From: Candidatus Nealsonbacteria bacterium
GTDB lineage: Bacteria; Patescibacteriota; Minisyncoccia; Minisyncoccales; PWPS01
NCBI GenBank assembly: GCA_003560665.1
Contig: PWKK01000023.1
Location: 11,698-75,697, forward strand
Length of the DNA: 64,000 nt
Direction: 5' to 3'
Shown here: piece after piece, positions 1,282 to 59,933 of the stretch
How the letters are laid out: every line of letters starts with the position of its first letter
Numbering within the stretch: position 1 is the first letter of the stretch
The notes under the pieces: generated by a model
Databases searched by the model: none
What the model was told of the DNA's origin: nothing
Seen by the model: only the letters and a program-made list of their open reading frames with translations
Position numbers and translations under genes: made by a program

Positions 1282-1365
1282 TGTATTTTTATTTGCCAAA
1301 TAATGCAACCTTTTATGGGATTTCTACAACTCTTTTTTGTAGTGGCAAAGAAGAAAAACAACAGG

Positions 1366-4300: not shown

Positions 4301-5604
4301 TTTATTTCAACTTTTTCTCTGTGGTCTTTCGCGCTTTCCAAGTCTTCCTTAAGTTTTTCTTTATGAGTTCTTTTTTCTTCAATGTTTTTATTTTTTTCTT
4401 CTTGTTTTTGTTGCAAATGTGCCAGAATTTCTTCTTTTCTGTTTTTCAGTTCCTCTTCCCATTTTTCATGCAAAAAAGATTCTTCCCTTTTAATCTCCTC
4501 TTCATCTTTTTTTCTTTGTTTTCTTTTTTCCTCTTCTTCTCTTCTTTCGTTTTCTGCGATGAATCCTTCTTTTTCTTTTTGAAACGCAGAGCTTCTTGCT
4601 CTTTTAATCTTTTCAATTTTTTCTTGTACTCTTTCTTTAAGATCCTTTAATTCTTTTTCCCTTTTTTCTCGTTCTTCTTTTTTCTTCTCTCGATATTCCT
4701 CTAATTCCTTTTTAAAAGAAGTGGCATGTCCTTTCTTTTTTTTCAGCACAGCCCTCTTTTCTTGAATTTCTTTCTGCAAGGATGAGAGTTCTGACAAAAG
4801 CCTTTCTTCCTCTTCCCGGTTTCCTTTTTCTTTTGAAAGTTCAAGGTCTTTTTTCAGGAGCTTAAATCTTTCAATAAGGCCTAAAAGAGAAACGGTCGAA
4901 GAAAGCTTACTGAGTTTTCTCTTGATAAGATCAAGCTCTTTTTTGAGGGTATTCTCTTTTGTTTCCGCACAAAAAGAATTAAACAGTGAACGCTGAAGTT
5001 CTTCTTCGAGTTGAACAGCCTCTTCTTCTTTTTTCCAAATGCTTTTTCTTTCTTGAAGAGTGATGTTTTCTGTTTTCTCTTGAGAGGATTGTCTGCTTTT
5101 AGTGGAATTAACCTTCTTTTTTATTTCCTCTTCCTGTTCTTTCTTGTTTTTTTTCTCTTCAATTGCCTCGATTAATTCTTTTTCAATCTTTCTTTTTTCA
5201 TTTTCTGCTTCCTCTATCTCTTTCTCTTTCTTTGACTTTTTTCCTCCATATTCTTCGATGAGAAACTCTTTCTTCTTCCTTATTCTTTCTGTTTCTCCCC
5301 CTCTCCTCCTCTCCTCCTCTTCCTCTTTCTTTCTCCTTTCCTCTTCTTCATTTGCCACTAAGTCTCTTGCTTTTTTTCTAATTTCCTCTATTAGCAGTTT
5401 TTCTTCTCTCTCTTCCTTCTCTTTTTGGTGGGCAGGAGAAAAAACACCCGATCTTGAAACAGAGTTTTGTTGATGTTTTTCTTTTGCTTTTTTGAGTAGG
5501 AGATCTATCGGGGGTCTGCTTTTTTTCCTTGTCTCTCCTTTTTGAATTCGGGCGATATCCCCCTTCATTGTCCGGATCCCTCCTTGTTGGCCTTTATCGG
5601 ACAT
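1366..5604 (-). CDS. Giant (1412 aa) E/K/R-rich coiled-coil repeat protein with a recurring W-x13-W motif; function unknown
   Basis: A 4.2-kb open frame with ATG at 5604-5602. Composition is dominated by Glu/Lys/Arg with heptad-like L/I spacing. Motif copies such as EKRWAIEEERRKAEKERWRWEE, RERWLLEDKRRVYEKHRWKAEE and RKRWGLEEKRRKVEEKKWNVQE occur, with first-W codons at 4141-4143, 3088-3090, 2689-2691, 2278-2280, 1867-1869 and 1525-1527. No signal peptide or TM-like hydrophobic stretch is visible. A TATAAT-like -10 lies at 5651-5656 on the minus strand. Confidence 0.8.
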   Translation of the reverse strand: MSDKGQQGGIRTMKGDIARIQKGETRKKSRPPIDLLLKKAKEKHQQNSVSRSGVFSPAHQKEKEEREEKLLIEEIRKKARDLVANEEEERRKKEEEEERRRGGETERIRKKKEFLIEEYGGKKSKKEKEIEEAENEKRKIEKELIEAIEEKKNKKEQEEEIKKKVNSTKSRQSSQEKTENITLQERKSIWKKEEEAVQLEEELQRSLFNSFCAETKENTLKKELDLIKRKLSKLSSTVSLLGLIERFKLLKKDLELSKEKGNREEEERLLSELSSLQKEIQEKRAVLKKKKGHATSFKKELEEYREKKKEEREKREKELKDLKERVQEKIEKIKRARSSAFQKEKEGFIAENERREEEEKRKQRKKDEEEIKREESFLHEKWEEELKNRKEEILAHLQQKQEEKNKNIEEKRTHKEKLKEDLESAKDHREKVEIKRNQSKKRVAQLEESREDTVKREEEVEKKEIRVRQVQRETQNPERKKELEEKRWAIEEERRKAEKERWRWEEKIEEARKEARDLANELFASQEEEKMKKERLEIIEKEEDVSSLRLSVANTYSEINILKEERRFAEKIQNQLSGQVKRTAKKIDSLSSAKKIVEERERDIEERKEIVNDSLERKNLEKERQEVEERRKCIEEEIREWSKYLSEGEKRIEEAKRNISSLALQISSLEESLQKTEEEITKKEKEINRQRKDLERKREREKKRKRELEEEKRKEEEKRQKDREEKREKEEKRKKEEEEKKREEEREQEKKEAEEKKKKEAEEKKKEEEKNLQSFLYNEKPVLLSQKETLEEKENVLQEKINIVSQKENKIKKKIENILDKEKEEVLPEKEEKIKRERWLLEDKRRVYEKHRWKAEEKIKEVTQKKELIDSLLEKERKLKETIERLEELPKKKPENSSLQKEHLIGSTKIKKEKEALIEKKLSLQEKNKTLQEKLIVISKNEQTVEKREKEIEEKIAKAEPDEKENLLSLYWQTKEERRKTEEERWKVERAIIDIRKEIKGVLFGLDNIRTKEEEEKLEQLRRKRQKEELLLKRKTPPLRKEFRELRRGIKSLQVKKNSLHKKKKHLEKSLQKARKEEKNLRRKEKSAEEESLSAETAGRRVSAEKRRWRAEEERREKEKSILSIKKELFPLLDKIEKFNLRKEELLRKKEDLENRKAKLLEEKTIHLIKKEKLKLRKKIVEVRNAIRLSHKKEKDIHKKITLLEEKKRMLGTKEKEIEKEKEKLEKEAEEEKNFKERMEIKKKRWAAEEKRRLLENKKWTAEKTAEQLKKEGFVEKSRRKRLEDKKEKMLASYHLKGIGPYKKRMWASLERIEKKQKKALRELDRIASIEKEIVAKISHFKNQKAGIDGSEKRIERKRWGLEEKRRKVEEKKWNVQEIIKDLDLEIKVIKKKIVAIKNKEKKWKERLKKNV
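3311..3358 (-). repeat. Perfect 24-nt tandem duplication inside the giant gene, encoding KKKEAEEK twice
   Basis: On the + strand, ttcttctcctctgcttcttttttt at 3311-3334 is repeated exactly at 3335-3358. The protein reads EKKEAEEKKKKEAEEKKKEE here. Confidence 0.85.
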
Positions 5605-5701
5605 ATAAGGATTGTTTTCAATTACCGATGATAATATATGTGCTCACTCTATTATAGAGCATAATCTTATAAAAACCAAAGACCTTGGTTAGAAAAGATA
5701 A

Positions 5702-11115: not shown

Positions 11116-12321
11116 ATGGACTTAGTTTATTTGCTTATGGAAGATAAAAAAGACGAAGAGAGAAAAATAAAAGAGGTTTTGGTAAGGGGTGTGGAGGAGA
11201 AAATTGACGAAAAGAATCTCGAAAAAAAGTTAAGAAGTGGAAAAAAGTTGCGCGTCAAGCTTGGGATTGATCCAACAAGTCCCAACTTACACCTCGGAAG
11301 ATCAATTCCCCTCTTAAAATTAAGAGATTTTCAGGAGCTGGGACACCAAATAGTATTTATTATCGGTGATTTTACCGGAATAATCGGTGATACTTCCGAC
11401 AAAGAAAGTGAGAGACCGATGCTTACGGAGGAAGTGGTAAAAGAAAATCTGGAAACATACAAAGAGCAGGCGGGAAAAATTATTGATCTTGCAAAAGCTG
11501 AAGTTAAGCATAACAGTGAGTGGCTTGGAAAATTAAATTACATGGAGATAGGAAAACAGGCAAACATTTTTTCTCTCAACGAATTTATCTCGCGTGAAAA
11601 CATCAGCAAAAGATTAGAGAAGGGAAAGAGAATTTCTCTTCGGGAGCTTCTTTATCCCCTGATGCAAGGGTATGACTCGGTGATGATAAAGGCTGATGTT
11701 GAGATTGGAGGAACAGACCAAAAGTTTAATCTTTTGACGGGAAGAACAATCCAAAAAGAGTACGGCCAAGAATCTCAAGACATTATCACCAATCCCCTTA
11801 TTGAAGGATTGGACGGGGAGAAGATGAGTTCAAGCAAAGGAAACACAATTAACCTTACCGACAAACCGAACGACATGTTTGGAAAAGTGATGTCTCTCCA
11901 GGACGACTTGATTATCCGGTACTTTACTCTTTTAACGAGAGTTGAGATGGAAAAAATAAAAGATTATCAGGAAGAGATGGAAAAAGGAACTAACCCCAGA
12001 GACATTAAAATAAAGTTGGCCCATGAAATTGTTAGAATGTATCACTCTCGAGAGAAAGCGGATGATGCACAGAATTATTTTGTAAAAACATTTTCAAAAA
12101 AAGAAACTCCTTCGGAGATGCCGGAGTTTAAGCCGAAAGATTATAATATTGTTTCCGTGCTCAGTGAAGCGGGACTTACCTCTTCGCGGGGAGAGGCAAG
12201 AAGGGTACTAGATCAAGGGGGGGTTCGGGTAAACGGCGAAACGGTTAGAGATGCTAGCTACATCGTAGAAAAGAACTCTGTCCTTCAAAAAGGAAAAATC
12301 AAATTCCTGAAAATACTGTAA
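11116..12321 (+). CDS. tyrS: Tyrosyl-tRNA synthetase
   Basis: GIDPTSPNLHLGRSIP is the HIGH region and KMSSSKGN the KMSKS region. The C-terminal S4-like segment reads GEARRVLDQGGVRVNGE. An alternative ATG lies at 11137. Confidence 0.9.
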   Translation: MDLVYLLMEDKKDEERKIKEVLVRGVEEKIDEKNLEKKLRSGKKLRVKLGIDPTSPNLHLGRSIPLLKLRDFQELGHQIVFIIGDFTGIIGDTSDKESERPMLTEEVVKENLETYKEQAGKIIDLAKAEVKHNSEWLGKLNYMEIGKQANIFSLNEFISRENISKRLEKGKRISLRELLYPLMQGYDSVMIKADVEIGGTDQKFNLLTGRTIQKEYGQESQDIITNPLIEGLDGEKMSSSKGNTINLTDKPNDMFGKVMSLQDDLIIRYFTLLTRVEMEKIKDYQEEMEKGTNPRDIKIKLAHEIVRMYHSREKADDAQNYFVKTFSKKETPSEMPEFKPKDYNIVSVLSEAGLTSSRGEARRVLDQGGVRVNGETVRDASYIVEKNSVLQKGKIKFLKIL

Positions 12322-47836: not shown

Positions 47837-49498
47837 ATGAAGAAGAAAATAGAAAGAATTTTAAGGGAAGCGACAGAAGAGATTTGCCCCACCATCGACG
47901 ATTGGGGTGAGGTTAAGGTAGAGCGGAGTGGTAAAAACCACGGAGATTACGCGTCTAATATCGCCTTTCTTTTGGCAAAAAAAGAAGGAAAAAATCCGGA
48001 AAACATAGCCAAGGAAATAAAAAAGAAAATTAAATCAGAGCTTGTCTCAAAAGTAGAAGTTAAAAACGGATTCTTGAACGTTTTTCTTTCCGAAAATGCT
48101 CTCAAGGAAGAGCTTTCTGAAGTTTTAAGAGAAAAAGATGATTACGGAAAAGATATTTGCGGAAAGACGCTGGTTGTGGACTACTCTTCTCCGAATATCG
48201 CCAAATCTTTCGGGGTAGGCCACCTCCGCTCAACCATTATCGGACAATCTCTTTACAATATCTATGAACACTTAGGGTGGAAAGGAGTCGGGATAAACCA
48301 TCTGGGAGACTGGGGAACGCAATACGGAAAACTTCTTTATCAAATTAAAAAAGAAGGAAAAAATCCGGAAGATCTTTCGATAGGAGAGTTGGAAGAACTT
48401 TACGTTCGTTTCCACAGAGAAGCGGAGGATAGTCCAGAGATGGAAGAAGAGGGGCGAAAGTGGTTTGCCAAGCTGGAGAGAGGGGACAAAGAAGCAAGAA
48501 AGATGTGGGAGGTTTGTCGAAAAAAGAGCCTGGAAGAGTTTCAAAAGATATACGATGATTTAGAAATAGAGATAGATTATGTTTTAGGAGAGAGTTTTTA
48601 CGAAGATAAACTTTCTGCGGTTATCAGGGAGGCAAAAGAAAAAAGGGTGGCAAAGAAAAGCAAAGGCGCACTGGTTATTGATTTTGATGATATGCCGTCG
48701 GCGATGATTTTAAAGTCTGACGGGAGCACAACTTACTTTACTCGCGACCTTGCCGCCGCAAAGTACCGCCTGGAAGAGTTTTCTCCCGATAAGTTGATCT
48801 ATGAGATAGGAGCAGACCAAACGCTACACATGAAACAACTTTTTGCAACGGTTGAGAAGATGGGTTGGGCGAAAAAAGCGAAGTTTGTTCACGTCCCTCA
48901 CGGAATGTTTCGTCTTAAAGAAGGAAAGTTTTCTACGAGAAGAGGAAGAACGGTTTACCTAGAAGAAGTTCTCGCTTTGGCAAAGAAGAAGGCGGAAGAA
49001 ATAATTAAGAACTCTGCGACCGCGAAAAATATCTCCCCAAAAGAAAGAAGAGAGATTGCTCGGATTGTCGGAATCGGAGCGGTAAAGTACAATGATCTTA
49101 AGCGTTACCACAAAAGAGATGTTCTTTTCGATTGGGACAGGATAGTTACACTTAAAGGAGACTCGGGGCCCTATCTGCAGTATACTTGTGTTCGTTGTAA
49201 AAGTATTTTAGAGAAGACAAAGAGGCATGATGTAACGGCGGAAAAACTGGATGAGGAGGAAAGAAAGATAGTAAAAAGAATTATTCAGTTCAATGAAACA
49301 GTGGATGCCGCGGCGAGCAGTTATTCGCCAAATCTTATTGCTGAATATGCATTCAGGCTTGCCAAAGAGTTCAATTACTTTTATGACAGTTGTCCTATTT
49401 TAGGAAACAAACAGAGAGTGGCGATTACGGAAGCGACACTGATTATACTTACACGCTGTCTTCATCTCCTAACGATATCGGTGCCCACTAAAATGTAA
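47837..49498 (+). CDS. argS: Arginyl-tRNA synthetase
   Basis: SSPNIAKSFGVGHLRSTIIG is the HIGH-type region, with TRDLAAAKY and a C-terminal DALR-type anticodon-binding domain. 553 aa. Confidence 0.93.
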   Translation: MKKKIERILREATEEICPTIDDWGEVKVERSGKNHGDYASNIAFLLAKKEGKNPENIAKEIKKKIKSELVSKVEVKNGFLNVFLSENALKEELSEVLREKDDYGKDICGKTLVVDYSSPNIAKSFGVGHLRSTIIGQSLYNIYEHLGWKGVGINHLGDWGTQYGKLLYQIKKEGKNPEDLSIGELEELYVRFHREAEDSPEMEEEGRKWFAKLERGDKEARKMWEVCRKKSLEEFQKIYDDLEIEIDYVLGESFYEDKLSAVIREAKEKRVAKKSKGALVIDFDDMPSAMILKSDGSTTYFTRDLAAAKYRLEEFSPDKLIYEIGADQTLHMKQLFATVEKMGWAKKAKFVHVPHGMFRLKEGKFSTRRGRTVYLEEVLALAKKKAEEIIKNSATAKNISPKERREIARIVGIGAVKYNDLKRYHKRDVLFDWDRIVTLKGDSGPYLQYTCVRCKSILEKTKRHDVTAEKLDEEERKIVKRIIQFNETVDAAASSYSPNLIAEYAFRLAKEFNYFYDSCPILGNKQRVAITEATLIILTRCLHLLTISVPTKM

Positions 49499-49509
49499 AA
49501 AATATAATT

Positions 49510-52377
49510 ATGAGCAAGGAAAAACAAAACGAAAAGAGCAGGTTTTCCCAAATGGAAGAAGAAGTTTTAAACTTTTGGAGAAAAGGGAAGATATTTGAAA
49601 AATCGGTAGAAAAAGAAGCTCCAAAAGGAAACTATGTTTTCTATGACGGCCCTCCTTTTATTACCGGCCTTCCCCATTATGCAACTCTTCTGCCGAGTAT
49701 CGCAAAAGACGTGATACCGCGATATTTCACGATGCAAGGATACCGTGTCGATAGGATTTGGGGATGGGATTGCCACGGATTGCCGGCGGAAAACAGAGTG
49801 GAAAAAAATTTGGGACTCAGAAACAAAAAAGACATTGAGAATTTAGGCATTAAAGAGTTTGTTGGCTCTTGTCGAGAATATGTTAGTAGTAGTTCAGAGC
49901 AGTGGGAGTGGTATGTAGAGAGAATTGGGCGTTGGGTAGATATGGAAAACGCCTACAAGACCATGGACTTGAAGTTTATGGAAAGCGTTATATGGGCCTT
50001 TAAACAACTTTATGACAAGAACTTAATTTACGAAGGTTACAGGACATCTTTACACTGTCCGCGTTGTGCTACTCCTCTTTCTAAGTTTGAAATAACGATG
50101 GATGCCGGGTCTTACAGGGAAGTGGAAGACGACTCTCTTTATGTTGAGTTTCAAGCAGAAGGAGGATTTTCTCTTCTTGTTTGGACAACGACTCCCTGGA
50201 CACTTCCCGGAAATCTAGCCTTGGCGGTTAAAGAGAATACAGACTATGTTTTTGTTTCAAGTTCCAATAAAGATTATGTGTTGGCAAAAGATAGATTAGA
50301 AGATGTTTTTAAAGAAAGGAACTACAAGATAGTTAAAGAGGTTAGGGGAAAAGATTTGGTTGGTCTTTGCTACAAACCTCTATTTGACTTAGAAAACAAT
50401 GAAATAAAGGAAAATAAAAATATTTATAAGGTTTACTCTGCTGATTTTGTAAGCACGGAAGATGGTACCGGCATTGTACATATTGCTCCAAACTTTGGAG
50501 AAGAAGACTTTGAATTAGGCAAAAGAGAGGGTCTTCCGGTAGTTGAGCTTATGGATGAAAGCGGAGTTTACACTGCAAGTGCAGGAGAGTGGAAGGGTTT
50601 TTATTTCAAAAAAGCGAGTGAGAAAACAAAACAAAAATTAAAAGACAAAATATTTTTACAAGAGAAAAGTGTCCACTCTTATCCCTTCTGTTATCGTTGT
50701 GATACAAGCTTGATTCACAAAGCCCAGAAAGCGTGGTACTTAAAGATAAGCGAAATTAGGGAAAAGATGATAGAGAGCAACGAAACCATTAACTGGGTTC
50801 CGGAGCATTTTAAAGAAGGAAGGTTCAAATACAATCTAGAGAATGCTCCTGACTGGTGTCTTTCTCGTTCACGATACTGGGGATCACCGGTTCCGGTTTG
50901 GAAGTGTAGTTGTGGGGAGATAAAAGTAGTGGGATCTTTAAAAGAAATAGAGAGGCTAGGAAAAGCAAAAGTAGATGATCTTCACCGCCCAGAGATAGAT
51001 GAAGTTTTTTTCGAGTGCCCCGAGTGTAGAGGTAAGATGAAAAGAGTTTTAGAAGTTCTTGATTGTTGGTTTGAATCGGGATCAATGCCTTTTGCTCAAT
51101 TTCACTATCCTTTTGAAAAAGAAGATGAGTGGGAAAAGTTGTTTCCCGCAGACTTCATTATCGAGTATACAGGACAACTCCGTGGATGGTTTTACTATCT
51201 ACACGTTTTGTCAAACGCTCTTTTTGACTCAAAGGCTTTTAAAAATGTTGTTGTCACCGGAGTTTTGGCGGGAGATGATGGAAGAAAGATGAGTAAATCA
51301 TTAGGCAACTATCCGGATCCAAAGATTGTCTTGGACAAGTATGGCAGTGACGCACTTAGAATCTACTTTATGTCAAATCCGATTATGGTAGGAGGAGATA
51401 CTAATCTTTCAGAGATAGACATTCAGGACGCACTTCGTAAAAACGTCATTCTTTTTTCAAACGTGGTAAGTTTTTACGAAACCTTTGCCAAAGAAAAATA
51501 CTTTGTGTTAGAGGATGAAGTAAAAGAACCATCTTCCGATAATGTTTTAGATAGGTGGATTCTGACAAGATTAAGCGAGACGATTAAAATGATAAAAGAA
51601 AGTCTTGAGAGTTATAATCTTCCTCCGGCGTGTATGGCGGTGACAAAATTCATTGATGACCTTTCAACTTGGTACTTGCGCAGATCAAGAGGGAGGTTCA
51701 AAGGAGAAGACGAGAAAGACGCAAACGCTGCACTTAAAACAACAGGATTTGTTTTGCATCAGTTCTCCAAAGCTGTTGCCCCGATAACACCTTTTGTGGC
51801 TGAAAGTGTTTGGCAGAAAACGACAGGAAGAAATTTTAAGAAAAAAGAAGAGTCTGTTCATCTCACAGGATACCCAAGTTTTTCTGACAAATTTGACAAA
51901 GAACTTTTAAAAGAAATGGAAAAAACAAGAGAAGTTGTTTCTTTGGCTCTCAAGAAAAGAACAGATGCAGGAATTAAAGTAAGACAACCGCTTCCGTCAT
52001 TAACGATAAATGAAAACCTCAAAGAAGAGTTTCTTTTTCTTATAAAAGAAGAGGTTAATGTAAAAAAAGTTGTTTTCGGGAAAAAAACTGATCTCGATAC
52101 AAAGATAACCCCGAAACTCAAGGAAGAGGGAGATGTAAGAGAGATTATAAGGAGTATTCAAAGTTTAAGAAAAGAAGCCAAACTGGTGCCGAGCGATAAA
52201 GTTAAACTCTCCTACTCAGGAGAAGATCTTACGAACATTTTTTCTAAATGGGAATCTACCTTCAAAAAAGAAGCAGGGATTTTTGAGATAACCAGTGAAA
52301 TTCCGAGAAAAACTCTTGCCAAAAAGACAATTAAAATAGATGGGAAGGAGATCGCTTTTTCCATCTCTTCTTCGTAA
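49510..52377 (+). CDS. ileS: Isoleucyl-tRNA synthetase (type 2, eukaryote-like)
   Basis: FYDGPPFITGLPHYATLL is the HIGH-equivalent region. The editing-domain blocks WTTTPWTLPGN and GTGIVHIAP are present, and KMSKSLGN is the KMSKS motif. 955 aa. Confidence 0.93.
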   Translation: MSKEKQNEKSRFSQMEEEVLNFWRKGKIFEKSVEKEAPKGNYVFYDGPPFITGLPHYATLLPSIAKDVIPRYFTMQGYRVDRIWGWDCHGLPAENRVEKNLGLRNKKDIENLGIKEFVGSCREYVSSSSEQWEWYVERIGRWVDMENAYKTMDLKFMESVIWAFKQLYDKNLIYEGYRTSLHCPRCATPLSKFEITMDAGSYREVEDDSLYVEFQAEGGFSLLVWTTTPWTLPGNLALAVKENTDYVFVSSSNKDYVLAKDRLEDVFKERNYKIVKEVRGKDLVGLCYKPLFDLENNEIKENKNIYKVYSADFVSTEDGTGIVHIAPNFGEEDFELGKREGLPVVELMDESGVYTASAGEWKGFYFKKASEKTKQKLKDKIFLQEKSVHSYPFCYRCDTSLIHKAQKAWYLKISEIREKMIESNETINWVPEHFKEGRFKYNLENAPDWCLSRSRYWGSPVPVWKCSCGEIKVVGSLKEIERLGKAKVDDLHRPEIDEVFFECPECRGKMKRVLEVLDCWFESGSMPFAQFHYPFEKEDEWEKLFPADFIIEYTGQLRGWFYYLHVLSNALFDSKAFKNVVVTGVLAGDDGRKMSKSLGNYPDPKIVLDKYGSDALRIYFMSNPIMVGGDTNLSEIDIQDALRKNVILFSNVVSFYETFAKEKYFVLEDEVKEPSSDNVLDRWILTRLSETIKMIKESLESYNLPPACMAVTKFIDDLSTWYLRRSRGRFKGEDEKDANAALKTTGFVLHQFSKAVAPITPFVAESVWQKTTGRNFKKKEESVHLTGYPSFSDKFDKELLKEMEKTREVVSLALKKRTDAGIKVRQPLPSLTINENLKEEFLFLIKEEVNVKKVVFGKKTDLDTKITPKLKEEGDVREIIRSIQSLRKEAKLVPSDKVKLSYSGEDLTNIFSKWESTFKKEAGIFEITSEIPRKTLAKKTIKIDGKEIAFSISSS

Positions 52378-52460
52378 ACGATACTATTTTTATGAAAAGC
52401 TTTTAACAACAGAATTACTGTTAAAAAATTATATTTTAGACAATCAAAACGAGTAAATTT

Positions 52461-53165
52461 ATGTTTACCCACCATCGCACGGAAGGGATAATTCTTCGCA
52501 TACGGCAAACAAGAGAAGCGGACGAGATTTTCACCCTTTATACAAAAGAATTTGGAAGATTGGATGTTATCGGAAGATCAATCCGTAAGAGTAGATCGAA
52601 GTTGCGCATGAATATGTCTCTTTTTTCTTATGTAGAGATTGGCTTTATTCAAGGGAAAAGCTATAATACCCTAACAGATGCATTTCTTATCTCTGACTTT
52701 AAAAGGGCAAAGAGAGTGTTGGGAAAGCTGTCGCTTTTTTACCGTATTTCGGAAGTGTTACTATCTCTTGTCTACGGACAAGAGAGGGATGAAGGGGTTT
52801 TTTTATTTCTTCTTAGAAGTTTTCAAAAGATTGAAGAGACAAATCTTTCTAAGGGAAAGATAGAGCTTTTCTTCTGCTTTTTCTCTTTCCGCCTCCTTTA
52901 TTTTTTAGGATATAAGGTGTATATTGAAAAGTGTGTTTTCTGTAAAGAGGAGATTAAGGGAGAGGGGTATTTTAATTCGAAAGAAGGAGGTGTCGTTTGT
53001 GGAAGTTGCTTTAGGAGAGACCCTGCAGGAATCCATCTTAAAGATGTTAAATCGTTACAGTGTTTTTTTGGAAACGATTTAGAACAAATATTTAATCAAA
53101 ATCCAAAAACTTTTTTAAATATTCTAGAAAACTATCTGGCGTTTGTTCCGGAAGTAAAAAAATAA
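52461..53165 (+). CDS. recO: DNA repair protein RecO
   Basis: The OB-fold N-terminus reads TEGIILRIRQTREADEIFTLYTKEFGRLDVIGRSIRKS. The zinc motif is CVFCKEE...CGSC. Confidence 0.8.
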   Translation: MFTHHRTEGIILRIRQTREADEIFTLYTKEFGRLDVIGRSIRKSRSKLRMNMSLFSYVEIGFIQGKSYNTLTDAFLISDFKRAKRVLGKLSLFYRISEVLLSLVYGQERDEGVFLFLLRSFQKIEETNLSKGKIELFFCFFSFRLLYFLGYKVYIEKCVFCKEEIKGEGYFNSKEGGVVCGSCFRRDPAGIHLKDVKSLQCFFGNDLEQIFNQNPKTFLNILENYLAFVPEVKK

Positions 53166-53195
53166 CCAAAGTTTTAATTTTAATCATTTTGCAAT

Positions 53196-54845
53196 ATGTT
53201 TAATCCTAAAAATCTAAAGAAAGTAATCGTTGTTCTTGTTGGTCTCCTCGTTGTTACCGGCTCCTTGGGATACTTCTATTATCAGAGAAATATTTTCGGG
53301 GAGGATAGGTTACGTTTTGAAATTTCCGCTCCGGAAGCCATAGAGGCGGGAGAAGAGGTAGAGTACATTGTTCGTTACAGAAATAACAGCGATGTCCGCC
53401 TAGAAGAGATGGTTCTTGTTTTTGAATATCCAGAGAATGTCATTATTATTGAATCGGAAGAAGATGAAGATATCAGGAGAAGAAGTGGAGTTCGACGTGA
53501 GGTTGATGTAGGAGAGCTGAATCCGGGTCAGGAAAAGACGGTAAGTTTCAAGGCTCGTCCTTTAGGGGAAAAAGGGAGCTCTTTTAAAGCATCCGCTTGG
53601 ATTAGGTATGTTCCCAGAAACTTGGCGGCACGTTATGAAGCAAAGAGAGAGCATATTGCGGTAATAGAAAATGTTCCGATTAGTTTTGATTTTCAAATTC
53701 CGGCAAATGTAGATCCCGACAGAGAGACAAGTTTCCGTTTGCGCTTTTCTTCTGGAATTGACTATCCTCTTACCGACATGGAGGTGCGTTTTAGATATCC
53801 TCCCGGATTTCGCTTTATAAGAAGTGCTCCACAAACCGACACAGAGGAGAGGGATGTGTGGTCCTGGTCGGTATTAAACAAAGGAGATGACGGAACAATC
53901 GATATTGACGGAGTCCTTAGGGGAGACCCGGGAGATGCAAAGATATTTAATGCCGTTCTTGGTATATGGCTCAATGATAGCTTTGTTCCCCTCAAAGAGG
54001 CATCAAGAGGAACAGCCATTTCTCGCAGCAACTTGTTACTTGATATGCAGGTAAACGGAAAAGAAGAGTATATTGCAAACCCCGGAGAGCTTTTGCATTA
54101 CGAGATATTTTTTAGGAATATCGGGAGCGAAACACTGGAAGATTTATTTTTGCTTGTTGATCTTGACGAGAACACGCTTAACCTTGATCAAGTAGAGCCG
54201 GTAGAGGGAAGATTTCAAAAAGAAAGAGGGGTTATTATTTGGAGTTACACCTTTGATTACGTGCTTCTCTCGCTAAAAGAAAATGAAGAAGGAAGAGTAG
54301 AATTTTGGGCAAGAGCAAAAGAAGATCTTCCTCAAAATCCGGAAATCAAAGTGAAAGCGTCAATGGAGAGAGCGGAGAAAACATTGGCCACTAGGATAAA
54401 TACTCGTCTTTCTCTTAGACAAAGTGTTATTCGGAAGGGAACGTTGTTTGAAGAAACTGGTCCTTTTCCATTCAAAGAGGGAGAGAAGTCCAATTACACC
54501 GTGAGATGGGTGGCGAAAACTTTTTTTAACGATGTTCGTGATGTGACAATCAAAACAGAACTTCCAGAAGGTGCGAGGATTACGGGAGAAAAAGATCCCG
54601 AAGATGTGTCTCTTTCGTTTAACTCTAGTACGAGAGAAGTGGTATTGGAGGTAGAAGAACTTTCGGCGGGAAGAGAAAAAGAAATATTTTTTGAAGTAGA
54701 AATAGACCCGCTAGAAGATTTTGACGAAGAAGATGTTGTTCTCGGTGAAGGCGAGATGACCGCCAAAGACAGAAGAACAGACGAAACGGTTGTCCAAAAA
54801 ACGGGGGCGGTTTTCTTGGATCAGGTTTTAGAAATTTCAAATTAG
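53196..54845 (+). CDS. Membrane-anchored protein with several DUF11/CARDB-like beta-sandwich repeats
   Basis: N-terminal TM helix (VIVVLVGLLVVTGSLGYFYY). Repeated segments follow the pattern G-E-x-V/L-x-Y-x-I-x-[FY]-x-N-x-[GS]...L, for example AGEEVEYIVRYRNNSDVRLEEMVL and PGELLHYEIFFRNIGSETLEDLFL. Confidence 0.5.
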   Translation: MFNPKNLKKVIVVLVGLLVVTGSLGYFYYQRNIFGEDRLRFEISAPEAIEAGEEVEYIVRYRNNSDVRLEEMVLVFEYPENVIIIESEEDEDIRRRSGVRREVDVGELNPGQEKTVSFKARPLGEKGSSFKASAWIRYVPRNLAARYEAKREHIAVIENVPISFDFQIPANVDPDRETSFRLRFSSGIDYPLTDMEVRFRYPPGFRFIRSAPQTDTEERDVWSWSVLNKGDDGTIDIDGVLRGDPGDAKIFNAVLGIWLNDSFVPLKEASRGTAISRSNLLLDMQVNGKEEYIANPGELLHYEIFFRNIGSETLEDLFLLVDLDENTLNLDQVEPVEGRFQKERGVIIWSYTFDYVLLSLKENEEGRVEFWARAKEDLPQNPEIKVKASMERAEKTLATRINTRLSLRQSVIRKGTLFEETGPFPFKEGEKSNYTVRWVAKTFFNDVRDVTIKTELPEGARITGEKDPEDVSLSFNSSTREVVLEVEELSAGREKEIFFEVEIDPLEDFDEEDVVLGEGEMTAKDRRTDETVVQKTGAVFLDQVLEISN

Positions 54846-54848
54846 TTT

Positions 54849-56108
54849 ATGGACAAAAAGACTCTCAGCAACGGTTTGCGACTAATTACCGTTCCACTTA
54901 AAAATACAAAAGTGGCGACAGTTTTGGTTTTGGTAAAAACGGGATCAAAGTATGAGGAAAAAAGTGTTTCCGGAATATCTCATTTTCTAGAACACATGTT
55001 CTTTAAAGGAACTAAAAGAAGAAAGACACAAATAAAAGTTGCCGAGGATATGGACAAGCTCGGCGGGGTGTATAATGCGTTTACCGGAGAGGATTACACC
55101 GGATATTATGCAAAGGTAAACTCCTCTCACCTTTCTGCCGCCGTGGACTGGGTTTCCGATATCTATCTTAACTCTCTTCTTCCCGAAAAAGAAATAGAAA
55201 AAGAAAGGGGCGTAATTAAAGAAGAGATTAACATGTATCGTGATAACCCGATGATGCACTGCCAAACAATCTTTCAAGAGCTTCTTTACGGAGATCAGCC
55301 TGCTGGGTGGGATATTGCCGGAACGAAAAAGTCGGTTTCTAGAATCACCAGAGAAAAACTTCTCTCTTATATGAAATCTCAGTACATTGCCGAGAACACG
55401 GTAGTGGTTGTTGCCGGAGATGTAAAGAAGAAAGATGTGGAAAAGGAAGTTGGCGATATTTTCTCTGGGATGAGAAGCGGTACCGTAAAAGAAAAAGAAG
55501 AGGTGAAAGAAGAGCAGTCTGAGCCAATGGTAAAAATTTATTACAAAGAAACCGATCAAACCCATCTTTGCCTGGGCGCAAGAGCGTTTAATATTTTTCA
55601 TCCTCACCGGTACACACAAGAAGTCGTTGCCGCACTTTTGGGAGGAATGATGAGCTCACGCTTGTTTGTGAAGATAAGAGATGAACTGGGGCTTGCCTAC
55701 TACATCAGAACGACCGCGGAAGATAATCCCGATACGGGAGTTCTTGTTACACAGGCAGGAGTGGACAACAAGAAGGCAAAAGATGCGGTAGGTGCTATTA
55801 TGAAGGAGTATAAAAAAGTTAAAAAAGAGAAAGTTTCTCTCAGAGAATTAAAAAAAGCAAAGGAAAACTTGAAAGGAAAGGCAGCTATTCTCTTAGAGTC
55901 ATCGGATTCACTGGCACGCTTTTACGGCATAAGCGAACTTTTAGAAAAAAAAACTTACAGGATAGAAGATATTTTTCGGCTTGTGGATAAAATAAAGAAA
56001 AAAGACGTTCAAAGCGCCACCGAGCAAATTCTTCGACCGGAAAATATTAATCTCGCTATAGTTGGTCCTCACAAAATGGAAAAACCATTTAAAAATCTTT
56101 TACAGTAA
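54849..56108 (+). CDS. M16 (pitrilysin/insulinase) family zinc peptidase
   Basis: GISHFLEHMFFKGT carries the inverted HxxEH motif. 419 aa. Confidence 0.85.
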   Translation: MDKKTLSNGLRLITVPLKNTKVATVLVLVKTGSKYEEKSVSGISHFLEHMFFKGTKRRKTQIKVAEDMDKLGGVYNAFTGEDYTGYYAKVNSSHLSAAVDWVSDIYLNSLLPEKEIEKERGVIKEEINMYRDNPMMHCQTIFQELLYGDQPAGWDIAGTKKSVSRITREKLLSYMKSQYIAENTVVVVAGDVKKKDVEKEVGDIFSGMRSGTVKEKEEVKEEQSEPMVKIYYKETDQTHLCLGARAFNIFHPHRYTQEVVAALLGGMMSSRLFVKIRDELGLAYYIRTTAEDNPDTGVLVTQAGVDNKKAKDAVGAIMKEYKKVKKEKVSLRELKKAKENLKGKAAILLESSDSLARFYGISELLEKKTYRIEDIFRLVDKIKKKDVQSATEQILRPENINLAIVGPHKMEKPFKNLLQ

Positions 56109-56146
56109 CCCTTTTTGTGATAAGATGAAGATGTAGTTTTCTCTCT

Positions 56147-57175
56147 ATGTCTGAAAACAAACAAACACTGGACATCTCCTGGGGGACGATAATGAGAGTT
56201 TTTTTTGCAATTATCGTCGTCTATCTCCTTTATCAAGTTGCCGAAGTTTTAATCTGGGCGGTTTTTGCCTTTGTCATCTCCATTCTTTTTAATCCCATTG
56301 TAGATTTTTTACGCAAACTTCACGTTCCGCGGCTTATCGGAGTTATTGCGGTTTACTTTGGTTTTTTTGGAGTAGTTTCTTTGCTTGCTTACGTCATCAC
56401 TCCCGGACTCTACGCGGAGGTAAGAAATTTTTCTCTTCTTCTTCCGGAGTATATTGAAAAAGTTTCCCCTTTTTTGAGACACATCGGAATAGAGGGTTTT
56501 GCCACATTAGACGAGATTGTGGAAAGTCTCCGAGCATCATCCGATGAAGTTACAAGAGGAGTTTTTAATGCACTGGTAATTATTTTTGGAGGAATCTCAT
56601 CAGCGTTTTTTATTACCACAATGGCTATTTTTCTTTCTTTGGAGGGTAACAGCGTCGAGAAAGCAATCGAGCTTTTAACCCCCGAAAAGCAAAAAAGTCA
56701 AGTGCTTTCCACTTGGAAAAAGTGCCGTATTCAGGTTGGAAGTTGGTTTTTAATTAGAATTATTGCTTGTATTTTTGTTGCCGTTACGTCGTTTGCTGTT
56801 TTTTATCTCTTCGGAGTAAAGTACGCATTGCTTTTTGCAGTCATCGGAGGTGTCTTTAATCTTGTCCCTTTTGCCGGCCCTGCAATCGCCGCTCTTCTCT
56901 TCTTTGTCATTACCTCTTTGGACAGCTTAACACAAGCCCTTTTTGTATTAGTAGCCTTTATGATAATTCAGGCAATAGAAGGAAGCGTTGTAACTCCGGC
57001 TCTTTCCAAAAGGATTATGGGAGTTTCTCCTGCCCTTGTCCTTATATCTATCGTTATCGGAGGGTCTCTTTGGGGGATACTGGGAGCCTTTTTAGCTATC
57101 CCTCTGATGGGCATCATCTTTGAGTTTACAAAAACATTTTTAGAGAAGAAGAAAGCTCAGGAAGGATCCTTGTAG
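56147..57175 (+). CDS. AI-2E (PerM/YhhT) family transporter
   Basis: About 8 TM helices. The motif ...FNLVPFAGPAIAALL... and the overall layout are typical of the family. Confidence 0.8.
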   Translation: MSENKQTLDISWGTIMRVFFAIIVVYLLYQVAEVLIWAVFAFVISILFNPIVDFLRKLHVPRLIGVIAVYFGFFGVVSLLAYVITPGLYAEVRNFSLLLPEYIEKVSPFLRHIGIEGFATLDEIVESLRASSDEVTRGVFNALVIIFGGISSAFFITTMAIFLSLEGNSVEKAIELLTPEKQKSQVLSTWKKCRIQVGSWFLIRIIACIFVAVTSFAVFYLFGVKYALLFAVIGGVFNLVPFAGPAIAALLFFVITSLDSLTQALFVLVAFMIIQAIEGSVVTPALSKRIMGVSPALVLISIVIGGSLWGILGAFLAIPLMGIIFEFTKTFLEKKKAQEGSL

Positions 57176-57193
57176 ACGGCTAACGACGAGAAA

Positions 57194-57976
57194 ATGTTTT
57201 TTGTGAAAAAAGAAATAAAAAAGAAAGCCGAAAGAGGGCTCCGATTTTTTTTGGAAGCTCTCTTTCCTGTTTTTTGCGTAAACTGCGGCAAAGAGGGACT
57301 CTATATTTGCGAAGACTGTTCTCTTTTTCTTTCGGAAAACAGTTTAATCTGTCCGGTCTGTCATGAGAGCAGTTATAACGGCAAAAGACACGGGTGTTGC
57401 AAAAAAAGATACAGCATGGATGGATTAGCTTCCGTTTGGGATCACGAAGGAGTTGTCAAAAAATCCATTCATCACCTAAAGCACTCCGATGTTTATCATA
57501 TGGCAGGGGAGCTGATAGAGAGATCTCTTAGGGTTATGATTAAGGACAAAGAAAGATTCTTTGACTTTTTGGAATTCGTCACAGAAGAAACAACAGTGAT
57601 TACTTTTGTGCCGGCTGAAAAAAAGGATGAGAAGATAAAATCTCTATCTGTAAGTCGATTGAGTTGTGTTCCTTCCGAAGGTTGTCATGCCGAGGTTTTG
57701 GCCAAAAAATTGGCTGAATTTTTAAAAAAAGAGGAAGGTGTGCAATCTTTACTTGAAAAGAAAAAAGAGATCAAGCGACAAGAGGGATTTACAGAAGAAG
57801 AGAAGACAAAAAACTTAAAAGATGCCTTTAAATCCAAAGCGAGAAAAATTCCCACAAATATTGTTTTAGTTGATGATTTTTTTGCAACTGGAACTACGAT
57901 GAAAGAGTGTACGAATGTTCTAAAAAGGGGAGGGGCAAAAAAAGTATGGGGTTTTTCTCTTACAAGGATAGTTTAG
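57194..57976 (+). CDS. comF: ComF family phosphoribosyltransferase-like protein (ComFC)
   Basis: N-terminal Cys clusters (CVNCGKEG..CEDC, CPVCH). The C-terminal PRTase loop is VLVDDFFATGTTMKE. Confidence 0.8.
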   Translation: MFFVKKEIKKKAERGLRFFLEALFPVFCVNCGKEGLYICEDCSLFLSENSLICPVCHESSYNGKRHGCCKKRYSMDGLASVWDHEGVVKKSIHHLKHSDVYHMAGELIERSLRVMIKDKERFFDFLEFVTEETTVITFVPAEKKDEKIKSLSVSRLSCVPSEGCHAEVLAKKLAEFLKKEEGVQSLLEKKKEIKRQEGFTEEEKTKNLKDAFKSKARKIPTNIVLVDDFFATGTTMKECTNVLKRGGAKKVWGFSLTRIV

Positions 57977-58490
57977 TTTGTAAGCTTCCGAAACTTACAG
58001 TAGGGAACAAAAAGCATCACACCAACAAACCTAAACAGGATTTTCGCGATAAATCCGGACCAGGATTGTTCTAGCTTACTTATCTTTCTTAGTACAACTG
58101 GTCTAATAAATAGTCTTATTTGAGAGAACGACTTCTTCGCTGTTATTCCGTGTCTTTTTTAAAACATTGCACGCTACTTTAAAATGTTCTATTATTGCCA
58201 CAACAATAAGAGGGTGTAGGGAGAAAACAATTATTTTTTTGGCGAAAGAATAGAATTTTTGTGAAGGTCTTTTGTTTTTCAGAGGAGGAAACGGATGTTG
58301 TCGCTTTAACTCTCGCTCCTTTTTTGGGGAAGACAGTTTTTTTCGCTTTATATCTTTGTTTTTGTTGTTAAGGATGGTTTTTAAATATGTTTAATTGTTT
58401 TCAATGCCCAATGGCGGGAAATGCTTGGGTTGATGCCTATTTTCGGGGATAGATGAAGAGCGCAAAGCATAAATTCTAGATAGCAAGGAA

Positions 58491-59933
58491 ATGGCTAAAA
58501 AGTTTTATATTACTACCAGCAGTGCAAGCGTAGACAAACTTCCTGATATTGATTTTTTATTAGAGCTTCTTCAAGCAGATGTTTTGGCACGCTATAACCG
58601 AAAAAAAGGAAAGGATGTTTTTTTTCTAACAAGCACAAGTGAGTACGGAATTAAAATTTTGAAAAAGGCAGAAGAAGGAAAGAAAGATCCCCAGGATTTT
58701 GTTAACGAAGTAACTCTTAAGTACAGAATATTTATTGAAAAACTAAATATTTCCAACAATTCTTTTATAAGAACCACCGATAAAGATTTGCACTTGAAAG
58801 GAACACAAAAGATTTGGAGAGAAATGAAAGAAAAAGGAGATGTTTATAAAAAAAAGCACAAAAGTTCATACTGTGCAGAATGTGATGCTTTTGTTGAAAA
58901 AAAGAAGCTCGTATCGGGGAAGTGTCCAAATCACGGAAAACATCCGGAAAATGTTGAAGAAGAGAGCTATTTTTTTAATCTTTCAAAGTACAAAGAAAAG
59001 ATAAAAGAGAAGATAGAGAAAGAAGGGCTACAAATTTTTCCGAGAGAAAGAAAAAACGAAATAATTTGTTTTTTAGAGGAAGTAGAAGATGTTATTATCT
59101 CTCGACCAAAGGAAAAGCTTTCCTGGGGAATCTCTGTTCCCGATGACGATAACCAGACTATCAGTAATTGGGTGGATGCTCTTTCTAGTTATCTAACGGC
59201 TTTGGGGTATCAAGACGAGAGAGATGATTTTTGGAGGTGGTGGCCGCCAGATGCGCACTGTATAGAAAGAAGTGTGTTAGTTTCTCACGGAGCGTTTTTG
59301 CCGGGAATTTTACTTTCTTTGGGCTTGGACCTTCCCAAGAATATTTATGTCCACGGACATATGGCGTGTGAGGGAAAGAAGAAGTCCAAAAAATTGGCGC
59401 GCTCGATTGATCTCTTTAATCTTCTAGAAGATTGGAGTAGTGATATTGTCAGGTATTATTTTTTAAGGGAGTCCCTTACATGCAAAGACGGACGTTTTTC
59501 CTATAAAAAGCTTAAAGAGGAATGTGATATTGATTTAATAGATGGGCTGAATAGCTTGGTTTATCGTGTGATTTCGTTTGCTCGAAAAATGGAAATAAAT
59601 TCTACAAACATTCCCAGGGTATGTGCCGGGGAGGTAGGAAAGGAGATTAAAAAAACAGAAAAACAAATTGAAGATTTCCTGGGAGAGTATATGCTCAAAG
59701 AAGCGCTAGAAAGTATTTGGGGATTGATTTGCTTTGCTAACAAATACACAAAAGAGAAAGAAATAATGGAGAAAAGAAAGAGCGGGCAAGAGGGGGCAAA
59801 AGAAATGCTTTGCCTTGTTCATTCTCTTTCAAAGATGCTCTCTCCCTTCCTCCCTTCGACAGCAAAAAAAATGGAAGCATCTCTTCGTGACCTTAAGGAA
59901 GAAAATATTTTCTCAAAAATTCCTAAAAAATAA
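58491..59933 (+). CDS. Methionyl-tRNA-synthetase-like protein with degenerate HIGH and KMSKS motifs
   Basis: It is colinear with MetRS: FYITT..., ADVLARYNRKKGKDVFFLT, FIRTTD, a CAEC...CPNHG knuckle, EESYFFNLSKY, ISRPKEKLSWGISVP, NWVDALSSYLTALGY and DIVRYYFLRE. Where PHIGH is expected it reads KLPDIDF. Where KMSKS is expected it reads KKKSKKLARS. Confidence 0.75.
   Translation: MAKKFYITTSSASVDKLPDIDFLLELLQADVLARYNRKKGKDVFFLTSTSEYGIKILKKAEEGKKDPQDFVNEVTLKYRIFIEKLNISNNSFIRTTDKDLHLKGTQKIWREMKEKGDVYKKKHKSSYCAECDAFVEKKKLVSGKCPNHGKHPENVEEESYFFNLSKYKEKIKEKIEKEGLQIFPRERKNEIICFLEEVEDVIISRPKEKLSWGISVPDDDNQTISNWVDALSSYLTALGYQDERDDFWRWWPPDAHCIERSVLVSHGAFLPGILLSLGLDLPKNIYVHGHMACEGKKKSKKLARSIDLFNLLEDWSSDIVRYYFLRESLTCKDGRFSYKKLKEECDIDLIDGLNSLVYRVISFARKMEINSTNIPRVCAGEVGKEIKKTEKQIEDFLGEYMLKEALESIWGLICFANKYTKEKEIMEKRKSGQEGAKEMLCLVHSLSKMLSPFLPSTAKKMEASLRDLKEENIFSKIPKK

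Follow-up and report, generated by a model that had tools for sequence, protein, structure and literature searches.

A methionyl-tRNA synthetase-derived protein, probably non-catalytic, encoded at the ancestral metG locus of a soda-lake Patescibacteria lineage

The locus described here raises the question of whether a gene that has the size and the surroundings of metG still encodes a methionyl-tRNA synthetase (MetRS). It is a plus-strand open reading frame (ORF) of 480 codons in a 64,000-nucleotide stretch of contig PWKK01000023.1 from Candidatus Nealsonbacteria bacterium (assembly GCA_003560665.1); this whole stretch is termed the window below, and the protein is referred to as the query or the MetRS-like protein. 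A preliminary description of the DNA had reported a protein colinear with MetRS whose catalytic signature motifs were degenerate, and had left the choice between a catalytically dead paralog recruited for another role and a remarkably divergent functional MetRS. Our analysis leads us to regard as probable that the ORF is the positional metG ortholog of a soda-lake Patescibacteria lineage, kept as a non-catalytic, MetRS-derived "pseudo-synthetase".

The ORF is present exactly as it had been described. In a Pfam search the 480-residue protein matched PF09334, the MetRS catalytic core (6.2e-72, 242.9 bits), and its best alignment to a solved structure was with Aquifex aeolicus 2CSX (5e-84), residues 2-475 of the protein lying on 4-473, so that colinearity with MetRS extends from end to end. 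The frame consists of 480 uninterrupted codons, is full-length in comparison with the orthologs and contains no frameshifts, premature stops or truncation. An artefact of sequencing, assembly or frameshift, or a chimeric contig, would have to be reconciled with scattered point substitutions in a continuous frame and with independent assemblies that carry the same gene: the Logan assemblies of the SRA runs SRR490128 and SRR490129 agree save for one nonsynonymous single-nucleotide polymorphism (G63E), and the gene is also carried by a JGI contig and by the 267,099-bp NCBI contig. No such artefact was found and we assign it a negligible probability. Loci L088 and L086 represent the same strain, and L087 (78% nucleotide identity) stops at the stop codon of the AI-2E transporter gene. 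In an exhaustive phmmer search against 1.84 billion cluster representatives, the 50% cluster of the MetRS-like protein held only the protein itself and the next representative stood at 41%.

A shift of the alignment register, which the preliminary description had named as a possible source of error, does not restore the motifs. Profile and pairwise alignments and a MAFFT alignment with the 14 closest database relatives share one register, in which the motifs stay broken: Aquifex VPHLGHAYT pairs with LPDIDFLLE, TGTDEHG with TSTSEYG, GKDILRFH with ERSVLVSH and KKMSKT with KKKSKK, while DGDF of the relatives corresponds to DGRF. Conservation was assessed in a leave-one-out test with the 120 best homologs, scoring those columns (n=126) in which the remaining sequences show conservation of 95% or more. 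The MetRS-like protein deviates at 37 of the 126 near-invariant columns; the other 119 sequences do so at 1.6 columns on average and at no more than 6. It is the sole exception among the 120 at about 19 positions (Y13, N15, H19, G21, G48, D50, Y225, G259, K260, D261, I262, F265, G303, N304, P308, D335, G354, N355 and W426). The motif degeneration reported earlier is therefore real and more severe than had been stated.

At the HIGH position the query reads D-I-D-F. The sequence PIYY.N..PHIGHAYT had been taken as the expectation for this region, but the clade norm is H-[ILV]-G-[FY] and not HIGH; what stands is the loss of its invariant residues by H19D and G21D. The relatives have Y13, N15, H19 and G21 without exception (119/119). 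As an observation on the clade as a whole, all 119 canonical relatives carry H-[ILV]-G-[FY] (F in 99, Y in 13) and the fourth His of HIGH is never present, which contrasts with the inactivity of the equivalent H21A mutant of Mycobacterium tuberculosis MetRS (PMC6038951). The KMSKS loop had likewise been called degenerate, and here the picture is mixed. KMSKSLGN..DP of the relatives is KKSKKLAR..DL in the query, the pentapeptide reading K-K-S-K-K: M298K and S301K are changed and the following G303, N304 and P308 are lost, whereas K297, S299 and K300 are retained. The erosion also reaches the anticodon-binding domain, which the preliminary description had not noticed. The helix RYN.DLA.GLGNL..R of the relatives reads ECDIDLIDGLNSL..R, the Asn (N355S; GNL to NSL) and the Trp (W426M; KPW to EIM) are replaced and R359 is kept, all three being invariant in 119/119 relatives. 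In MetRS the CAU anticodon is read by Asn and Arg in the GNL..R helix together with the Trp of KPW.

For the active site, the structure of M. tuberculosis MetRS with Met-AMP names the contacting residues, and the HIGH-motif mutant H21A of this enzyme is inactive (PMC6038951). Ile10 and Tyr12 make up the methionine pocket's upper wall, His18 and Gly20 contact the adenine, Asp49 contacts the amino nitrogen of methionine, and Gly261, Asp263 and Ile264 bind the ribose hydroxyls (PMC6038951); Trp228, Asn234 and Tyr235 line the methionine pocket and have their counterparts in the segment 59163..59192 of the window. When these contacts were mapped onto the query by motif equivalence, 8 of 11 proved to be replaced non-conservatively, namely the counterparts of Ile10, Tyr12, His18, Gly20, Asp49, Asn234, Gly261 and Asp263. 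The counterpart of Ile264 is conservatively Val, and only those of Trp228 and Tyr235 (W227 and Y234) are kept. The Asp for the methionine amino group is lost by D50S, and the changed positions of the GKDI block are invariant in 118-119 of 119 relatives. Counterparts of Glu24, Lys54, Trp228, Ala231, Leu232, Tyr235, His290 and Gly291 are kept. Overall, the exchanges strike the lining of the methionine pocket, contacts to adenosine, ribose and phosphate of Met-AMP, the turn after the KMSKS loop and the reading of the CAU anticodon. The exchanges G21D and G259E at backbone-contact glycines, together with H19D, would occlude and acidify the nucleotide pocket, so that adenylate formation would not be expected. 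The protein also falls short of both NCBIfam metG cut-offs (TIGR00398, 324.3 versus 336.35; NF008900/PRK12267, 378.8 versus 598), while ArgRS and IleRS of the window cleared their own curated cut-offs comfortably in the same profile comparison. It fails defining sequence tests of a functional MetRS and is best filed with the non-catalytic synthetase-derived proteins.

An odd HIGH motif would not by itself justify this. Other class-I synthetases of the window also have variants at this site (PHYAT in IleRS, GVGH in ArgRS and HLGR in TyrRS), and, where relatives were compared, such variants are kept: HYAT is also found in L089, GVGH is identical in L004, and HIGF occurs across the MetRS clade. 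An odd HIGH alone is therefore no evidence of inactivity in this group. Altered-HIGH IleRS2 is active, and its variant is conserved and adaptive (Brkic et al. 2023, PMC10485003); the query resembles it as a class-I synthetase with HIGH off consensus, but its altered HIGH is one among dozens of changes that touch every substrate site. As read from the sequence, what argues for inactivity is that residues of all substrate sites were lost together and specifically in this lineage, combined with a burst in evolutionary rate (see below). These considerations bear directly on the alternative that the protein still works as a MetRS, that its active site has been radically rebuilt and that its organism has no other. 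Such an enzyme would make sense of the retention of both KMSKS lysines, Trp227, Tyr234, His266, Glu25, Lys55 and the zinc knuckle, in a lineage whose class-I enzymes tolerate HIGF, HYAT and GVGH and with functional IleRS2 as a precedent. The tolerated variants, however, are conserved in relatives, whereas those of the query are unique and accompanied by a 2.8-fold rate burst. The Asp for the methionine amino group, the first His of HIGH, two backbone-contact Gly, the ribose Asp and the anticodon Asn and Trp have been lost together, when the single change H21A suffices to kill M. tuberculosis MetRS (PMC6038951), and the pocket residues are not conserved between the query and a second degenerate lineage introduced below. 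With the Met-AMP-contacting residues replaced, a remarkably divergent functional MetRS is improbable.

The overall fold appears to have survived. An AlphaFold2 model built from a 65-sequence alignment reached a pLDDT of 90.1 and a pTM of 0.92 and superposed on MetRS structures with TM scores of 0.82-0.90 in Foldseek; as the model draws on canonical relatives through its alignment, these values speak for compatibility with the fold and are no proof of stability. Residues 297-303, the KMSKS loop, form the sole internal segment of low confidence. The protein is thus predicted to retain the Rossmann fold, the CP domain with its CxxC...CxxH zinc knuckle and the helical C-terminal domain.

The origin of the gene is apparent from its position. 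The nearest canonical relative, P0003 (52% identity), is encoded on a contig of a soda-lake metagenome-assembled genome (L004/L005), where the gene order is ArgRS-IleRS-RecO-p567-peptidase M16-AI-2E transporter-MetRS; this order recurs in the window (47837 to 59933). The stop of AI-2E and the start of MetRS overlap by 8 nt in L004/L005. Block and overlap are repeated in a third lineage (P0005; L089-L092), and the succession M16-AI-2E-MetRS is kept at more than 14 more distant Patescibacteria loci. Because of this conserved gene block the MetRS-like gene is the positional ortholog of metG and no paralog, and an origin as a recent paralog was rejected. Of the earlier proposal of a catalytically dead paralog, the first element appears well supported by the loss of Met-AMP contacts and the scores below the cut-offs; the second has to be given up, as the gene is the ortholog in the metG slot. 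Between the AI-2E gene and the MetRS-like gene, the window contains a ComF-like ORF and an ORF-free spacer (Table 1). The ComF-like ORF is missing from this position in L004, L005, L089 and L093, and its insertion is a lineage-specific rearrangement. In L005, a ComF-like fragment is found downstream of metG, on the other strand, and local rearrangement has therefore occurred. The spacer gave no credible Rfam match and no protein remnants in tblastx, and contains one weak promoter-like site (58158-58185). Insertion of the ComF-like ORF was also considered as the cause of inactivation and was rejected, given that the second degenerate gene is eroded though it still directly adjoins AI-2E. A separate observation concerns L089, in which a class-II synthetase gene (tRNA-synt_2b plus HGTP_anticodon, 464 aa; 6197-7591) that is absent from the window and from L004 stands between p544 and M16.

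Identity to L004 amounts to 58-74% for the neighbors of the MetRS-like gene in the window and to 52% for the gene itself. In every other genome with the block, conservation of MetRS equals or exceeds that of M16 and AI-2E (for example 59 versus 58 and 48), and an identity of about 67-75% would therefore be expected for MetRS in the window. More than 120 MetRS of more distant organisms are closer to P0003 than is its positional ortholog. Tajima relative-rate tests with L089 as outgroup gave 101 unique changes in the window gene versus 36 in that of L004 (chi-square 30.8, p = 3e-8), while RecO, p549, M16 and AI-2E were balanced (p = 0.18-0.84); the MetRS-like gene has evolved about 2.8 times faster than its ortholog. 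The low identity of IleRS was traced to the L004 copy (223 versus 78 unique changes) and not to that of the window. Fast evolution of the whole genome was rejected because the neighbors pass the relative-rate test, and on these comparisons the acceleration is a gene-specific burst at the ancestral locus.

A burst of this kind might reflect decay, and the frame was compared with neutral expectation. In a simulation of neutral decay that comprised substitutions only and ignored indels, a stop-free frame was obtained in at most 0.5% of runs at 15% amino acid change and in practically none at 20% or more. The measured divergence is 25-28%, and about 5.7 stops would be expected under neutrality in the 299 scorable codons alone. 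The replacements are biased as well: 11 of the 37 replaced near-invariant residues were changed to Ser (p ~1e-4), 10 of them via AGY codons, Ser makes up 18-30% of replacements versus 8% for random mutation, and the content of Ser and Cys is the highest of 120 sequences. Judged by these figures, the intact ORF does not fit neutral decay and would be maintained by selection as a protein. In charge, isoelectric point (pI) and GC content the gene or protein is no outlier among the 120 sequences; a shift of pI or charge toward nucleic-acid binding was not seen, and a drop in GC content as a sign of decay was rejected.

A second degenerate lineage was detected when 149 other top representatives were screened at 21 key positions. 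N-terminally truncated entries aside, all but two had lost at most four. P0273, a protein of 439 aa from a 439-codon open frame on a 1.6-kb contig of Logan assembly SRR25242036 (L093), another metagenome, has lost 17 of 21 and deviates at 67 of the 126 near-invariant columns. PHIGF is changed to PELYS, TGTDEHG to VGIDDYG and GKDI..FH to KENLYLQS, and it has deletions of the adenine turn HGF, of a portion of the GNL..R helix and of the KPW loop. In the 64 nt upstream of P0273 the C-terminus of AI-2E is encoded (...GIVFEFFKAFLEKRNMEEG*), with no ComF insertion, and the gene therefore occupies the same ancestral slot. Identity between query and P0273 is about 36%. They have 29 deviant columns in common compared with 19.7 expected (Fisher p = 2e-4), and the same derived residue at 8 positions, encoded by the identical codon at 6; Ser225 is AGT in both, two steps from the ancestral TAT. 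Quartet site patterns favor a grouping of the two proteins (14:8:5, 18:6:7 and 17:11:6), to which long-branch attraction could contribute. Searched as a DNA pattern, the shared signature KKHK..[YW]C.ECD.F matched, out of 94 loci, only the window, its Logan copies (L001, L002) and L093, and it had no match in the JGI metagenome collection. These shared features suggest that the MetRS residues were probably lost once, in the common ancestor and before the window and P0273 lineages split, with the frame kept open in both.

The ORF that follows P0273 (L093, 1374-1643) overlaps its stop by 11 nt and has a type IV pilin-like N-terminus (MKNKGFTFLELMIVIALLAIF); in the window, the gene that follows is a different one, of glycosyltransferase-like type. 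In another lineage, the MetRS homolog P0266 (L094, Logan SRR22387967, 34-2690) combines an intact HIGH with a degenerate KMSKS (R-x-S-D) and lacks Tyr13 and Asn15. Its gene overlaps the start of a gene for an archaeal-type S-adenosylmethionine synthetase (PF01941), and P0266 may be another atypical MetRS derivative, tied to methionine/ATP chemistry.

P0273 repeats the domain gradient of the window protein, more steeply (Table 1). Any remaining function would most likely reside in the N-terminal Rossmann/CP half and not in anticodon binding. The earlier suggestion that the protein was recruited to bind tRNA or an anticodon loses ground: its anticodon determinants have disappeared, and conservation is lowest in the anticodon domain in both degenerate lineages. 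Binding of an RNA or protein partner would be the most likely kind of role, with selection now presumably maintaining a soluble, full-length fold.

Several results weigh against a retained non-catalytic protein. Relative to the nearest relatives, the excess of substitutions is almost uniform over site classes (0.28 at near-invariant sites versus 0.12-0.25 at others). MetRS-specific constraint would therefore have been lifted roughly everywhere, which is the prediction of simple relaxation, and there is no sign of new constraint. The mean BLOSUM62 score of the changes, 0.01, lies between those of orthologs (0.37-0.64) and of random mutation (-0.57), a comparison blurred by background changes, and it fits a mixture of background and neutral changes. 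P0273, which is shorter and has C-terminal deletions, looks like progressive decay, and long-branch attraction or parallel relaxation could explain part of the derived residues that it shares with the query. The gene lies among AI-2E transporter, ComF-like and membrane glycosyltransferase-like genes, and the latter two give no functional hint. Finally, no second MetRS of any type was found within the 64-kb window, and no canonical metG of vertical type on the 267,099-bp contig appeared among the top database matches of P0003.

The uniform excess and the BLOSUM62 result would be explained if the gene were a relic on its way out, decaying under relaxed selection after its function had moved, with the frame open by chance or because stops would be polar on the downstream gene. 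The next gene starts 95 nt past the stop in the window and overlaps the stop in L093, and the deletions of the more eroded P0273 fall in the KMSKS and anticodon domains, as such a course would allow. Survival of a stop-free frame would nevertheless be very rare even at the lowest plausible divergence, indels aside, and the same luck would be needed independently in a second, more diverged lineage; the bias toward Ser and the selective retention of the zinc ligands and the N-terminal half likewise speak against a relic. We consider this explanation unlikely, with a small but appreciable chance of being correct.

A neofunctionalized enzyme, in which a former active site rich in Ser, Asp and Glu serves a new ligand or chemistry, is unlikelier still. 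Cyclodipeptide synthases offer a parallel, as they descend from class-I synthetases, have lost HIGH and have gained a catalytic, conserved Ser. The gain of Ser at 11 formerly invariant positions is not random, there are three new acidic residues in the nucleotide pocket, and fold and frame have been kept in two lineages. The residues of the putative pocket, however, mostly differ between query and P0273 (positions 11, 13, 19, 21, 259 and 261), substitution is spread over the site classes without focus, and the gene has no biosynthetic neighbors.

If the query is a retained non-catalytic protein, a further MetRS gene at some other place in the genome would provide for the charging of Met-tRNA. 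Most plausibly, this gene would have been acquired horizontally and would have freed the MetRS-like copy from constraint. Extra synthetase copies in prokaryotes stem mostly from horizontal transfer, and non-catalytic derivatives such as HisZ exist (PMC5388404); in light of this survey, displacement by a xenolog would be the most plausible background. Among the candidates, P0002, the top canonical match, lies outside the AI-2E context in a different assembly and has no special affinity to the query (39 versus 37 site patterns), and composition does not separate the locus that carries it (L003) from the window. P0005 is the ortholog from another organism. The negative searches for a second metG in the window and among the top matches of P0003 would also suit a working MetRS. 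Were the eroded gene the only metG homolog, a host or partner would have to supply MetRS or charged tRNA-Met, or the active site would be unlike that of any known class-I synthetase; we attach a low probability to this.

Compared with canonical MetRS with a single zinc knuckle (Aquifex 2CSX, Thermus 1A8H, Brucella 4DLP and P0003), the query shares about 470 colinear residues, the fold, the zinc ligands and the slot behind AI-2E. It differs in the absence of the methionine, adenylate and CAU-anticodon residues, in scores below the metG cut-offs and in its roughly 2.8 times faster evolution. Extremely reduced insect endosymbionts have eroded synthetase genes, and housekeeping translation genes degenerate in small, partner-dependent genomes. 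In the present case, by contrast, erosion is confined to one gene, and ArgRS, IleRS, TyrRS, RpoB/C and GroEL look normal; the window is otherwise one of ordinary housekeeping (PNPase, CCA-adding enzyme, TyrRS, RpoB, RpoC, FtsK, RNase J and GroEL). Non-catalytic proteins derived from synthetases include the HisRS-like domain of GCN2 and the SerRS-like SLIMP of insects. HisZ, the HisRS-like regulatory subunit of ATP phosphoribosyltransferase, is similar to the query in having kept the synthetase core and lost the aminoacylation residues (PMC5388404). All three are true paralogs, each with a defined role or partner and each existing beside the functional enzyme, whereas the query is the positional ortholog of a housekeeping gene, of class-I MetRS origin, and evolves very fast. 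A MetRS paralog predicted to be a peptide ligase occurs in strict linkage with genes for cupin and Lys-N6-monooxygenase and was inferred to be active (Aravind et al. 2010, PMC2922099). Like the query, it is a MetRS-derived protein proposed to act outside translation; the query has neither these neighbors nor the adenylation residues.

Known non-catalytic relatives of synthetases are usually additional paralogs that have a definite task. In the present episymbiont lineage with a small genome, it is the housekeeping metG locus that would have been converted, to code for a fast-evolving protein with the fold but without the chemistry, a state that has apparently persisted through a split of lineages. 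Should a xenologous MetRS be encoded elsewhere in the genome, the locus would be a clean natural case of the displacement of an essential gene with retention of the displaced copy, and a starting point for uses of a synthetase scaffold without catalysis. Should there be no other MetRS, the finding would bear on the autonomy of translation in bacteria of the Candidate Phyla Radiation. Annotation by homology would name such genes "methionine--tRNA ligase", and the genome would count as MetRS-complete. The features of the locus are compiled in Table 1.

Table 1. Features of the MetRS-like gene and its surroundings (window coordinates), with changed residues given relative to the canonical relatives and amino acid identities by domain
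Feature	Position	Strand	Remarks
Synteny block ArgRS-IleRS-RecO-p549-peptidase M16-AI-2E transporter	47837..57175	+	defines the ancestral metG locus
ComF-like phosphoribosyltransferase ORF	57194..57976	+	between AI-2E and MetRS-like gene; NCBIfam comF/GntX matches
ORF-free spacer, 514 nt	57977..58490		upstream of MetRS-like gene; absent from relatives
MetRS-derived ORF, 480 aa	58491..59933	+	ATG start; MetRS fold complete as predicted, residues for catalysis and anticodon reading eroded
Strand beta-1 / Met-pocket wall and HIGH, residues 10-22	58518..58556	+	SSASVDKLPDIDF versus relatives SIAYTNAPPHIGF: I11S, Y13S, N15D, H19D, G21D
TSTSEYG versus relatives' TGTDEHG	58629..58649	+	G48S, D50S, H52Y; G48 and D50 invariant 119/119
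CP segment KKHKSSYCAECDAF...GKCPNH	58851..58934	+	zinc ligands C128, C131, C145, H148 kept; clade-specific derived Y123H, G130E, E132D, common to P0273
SNWVDALSSY versus YVW.DAL.NY	59163..59192	+	Y225S, V226N, N233S; W227 and Y234 kept
ERSVLVSHGAFL versus GKDILRFH...W	59265..59300	+	G259E, K260R, D261S, I262V, F265S, W270L; H266 kept; ribose contacts lost
KMSKS loop KKSKKLARSIDL versus relatives KMSKSLGNVIDP	59379..59414	+	K297, S299, K300 kept; M298K, S301K, G303A, N304R, P308L
First anticodon-domain helix ECDIDLIDGLNSLVYR versus RYN.DLA.GLGNLV.R	59520..59567	+	R344E, Y345C, N346D, A350I, G354N, N355S; R359 kept
EKEIME versus E.KPWE	59754..59771	+	anticodon-stacking Trp gone (W426M); W invariant 119/119
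N-terminal Rossmann half			identity: window vs P0003 62%; P0003 vs P0005 64%; P0273 53%
CP / zinc-knuckle domain			identity: window vs P0003 58%; P0003 vs P0005 73%; P0273 44%
C-terminal Rossmann half			identity: window vs P0003 54%; P0003 vs P0005 76%; P0273 37%
KMSKS domain			identity: window vs P0003 52%; P0003 vs P0005 60%; P0273 26%
Anticodon domain			identity: window vs P0003 38%; P0003 vs P0005 47%; P0273 29%

Some further observations were made on the window and its relatives. Positions 1-6000 show a GC skew of about -0.3 and an AT skew of about -0.5 over a minus-strand ORF of 1411 aa (1366..5604) without a Pfam match. Most plus-strand genes between 42000 and 64000 have no recognizable Shine-Dalgarno sequence, the 25 nt upstream being merely A/T-rich. 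In TyrRS of the window (11116-12321) NLHLGRSIP has HLGR where HLGH is expected, and a KFGKS-like motif was not found with a simple regular expression. ArgRS of the window (47837-49498) contains SFGVGHLRST, with GVGH where HVGH is expected, as in L004. The L004 ArgRS (281-1903) was called as two genes (379 plus 125 aa), but tblastn with the window ArgRS was continuous over 553 residues; the split is likely a frameshift or sequencing error in that record. IleRS of the window (49510-52377) passes the ileS cut-off (841 versus 621) and has an intact KMSKS. At the HIGH position (residues ~53-58) it reads GLPHYATLL, as in L089 (955-3852), while L004 (1937-4858) has the canonical PHYGH. This distribution suggests two types of IleRS, or a xenologous swap, among sister lineages and is reminiscent of the altered-HIGH IleRS2.

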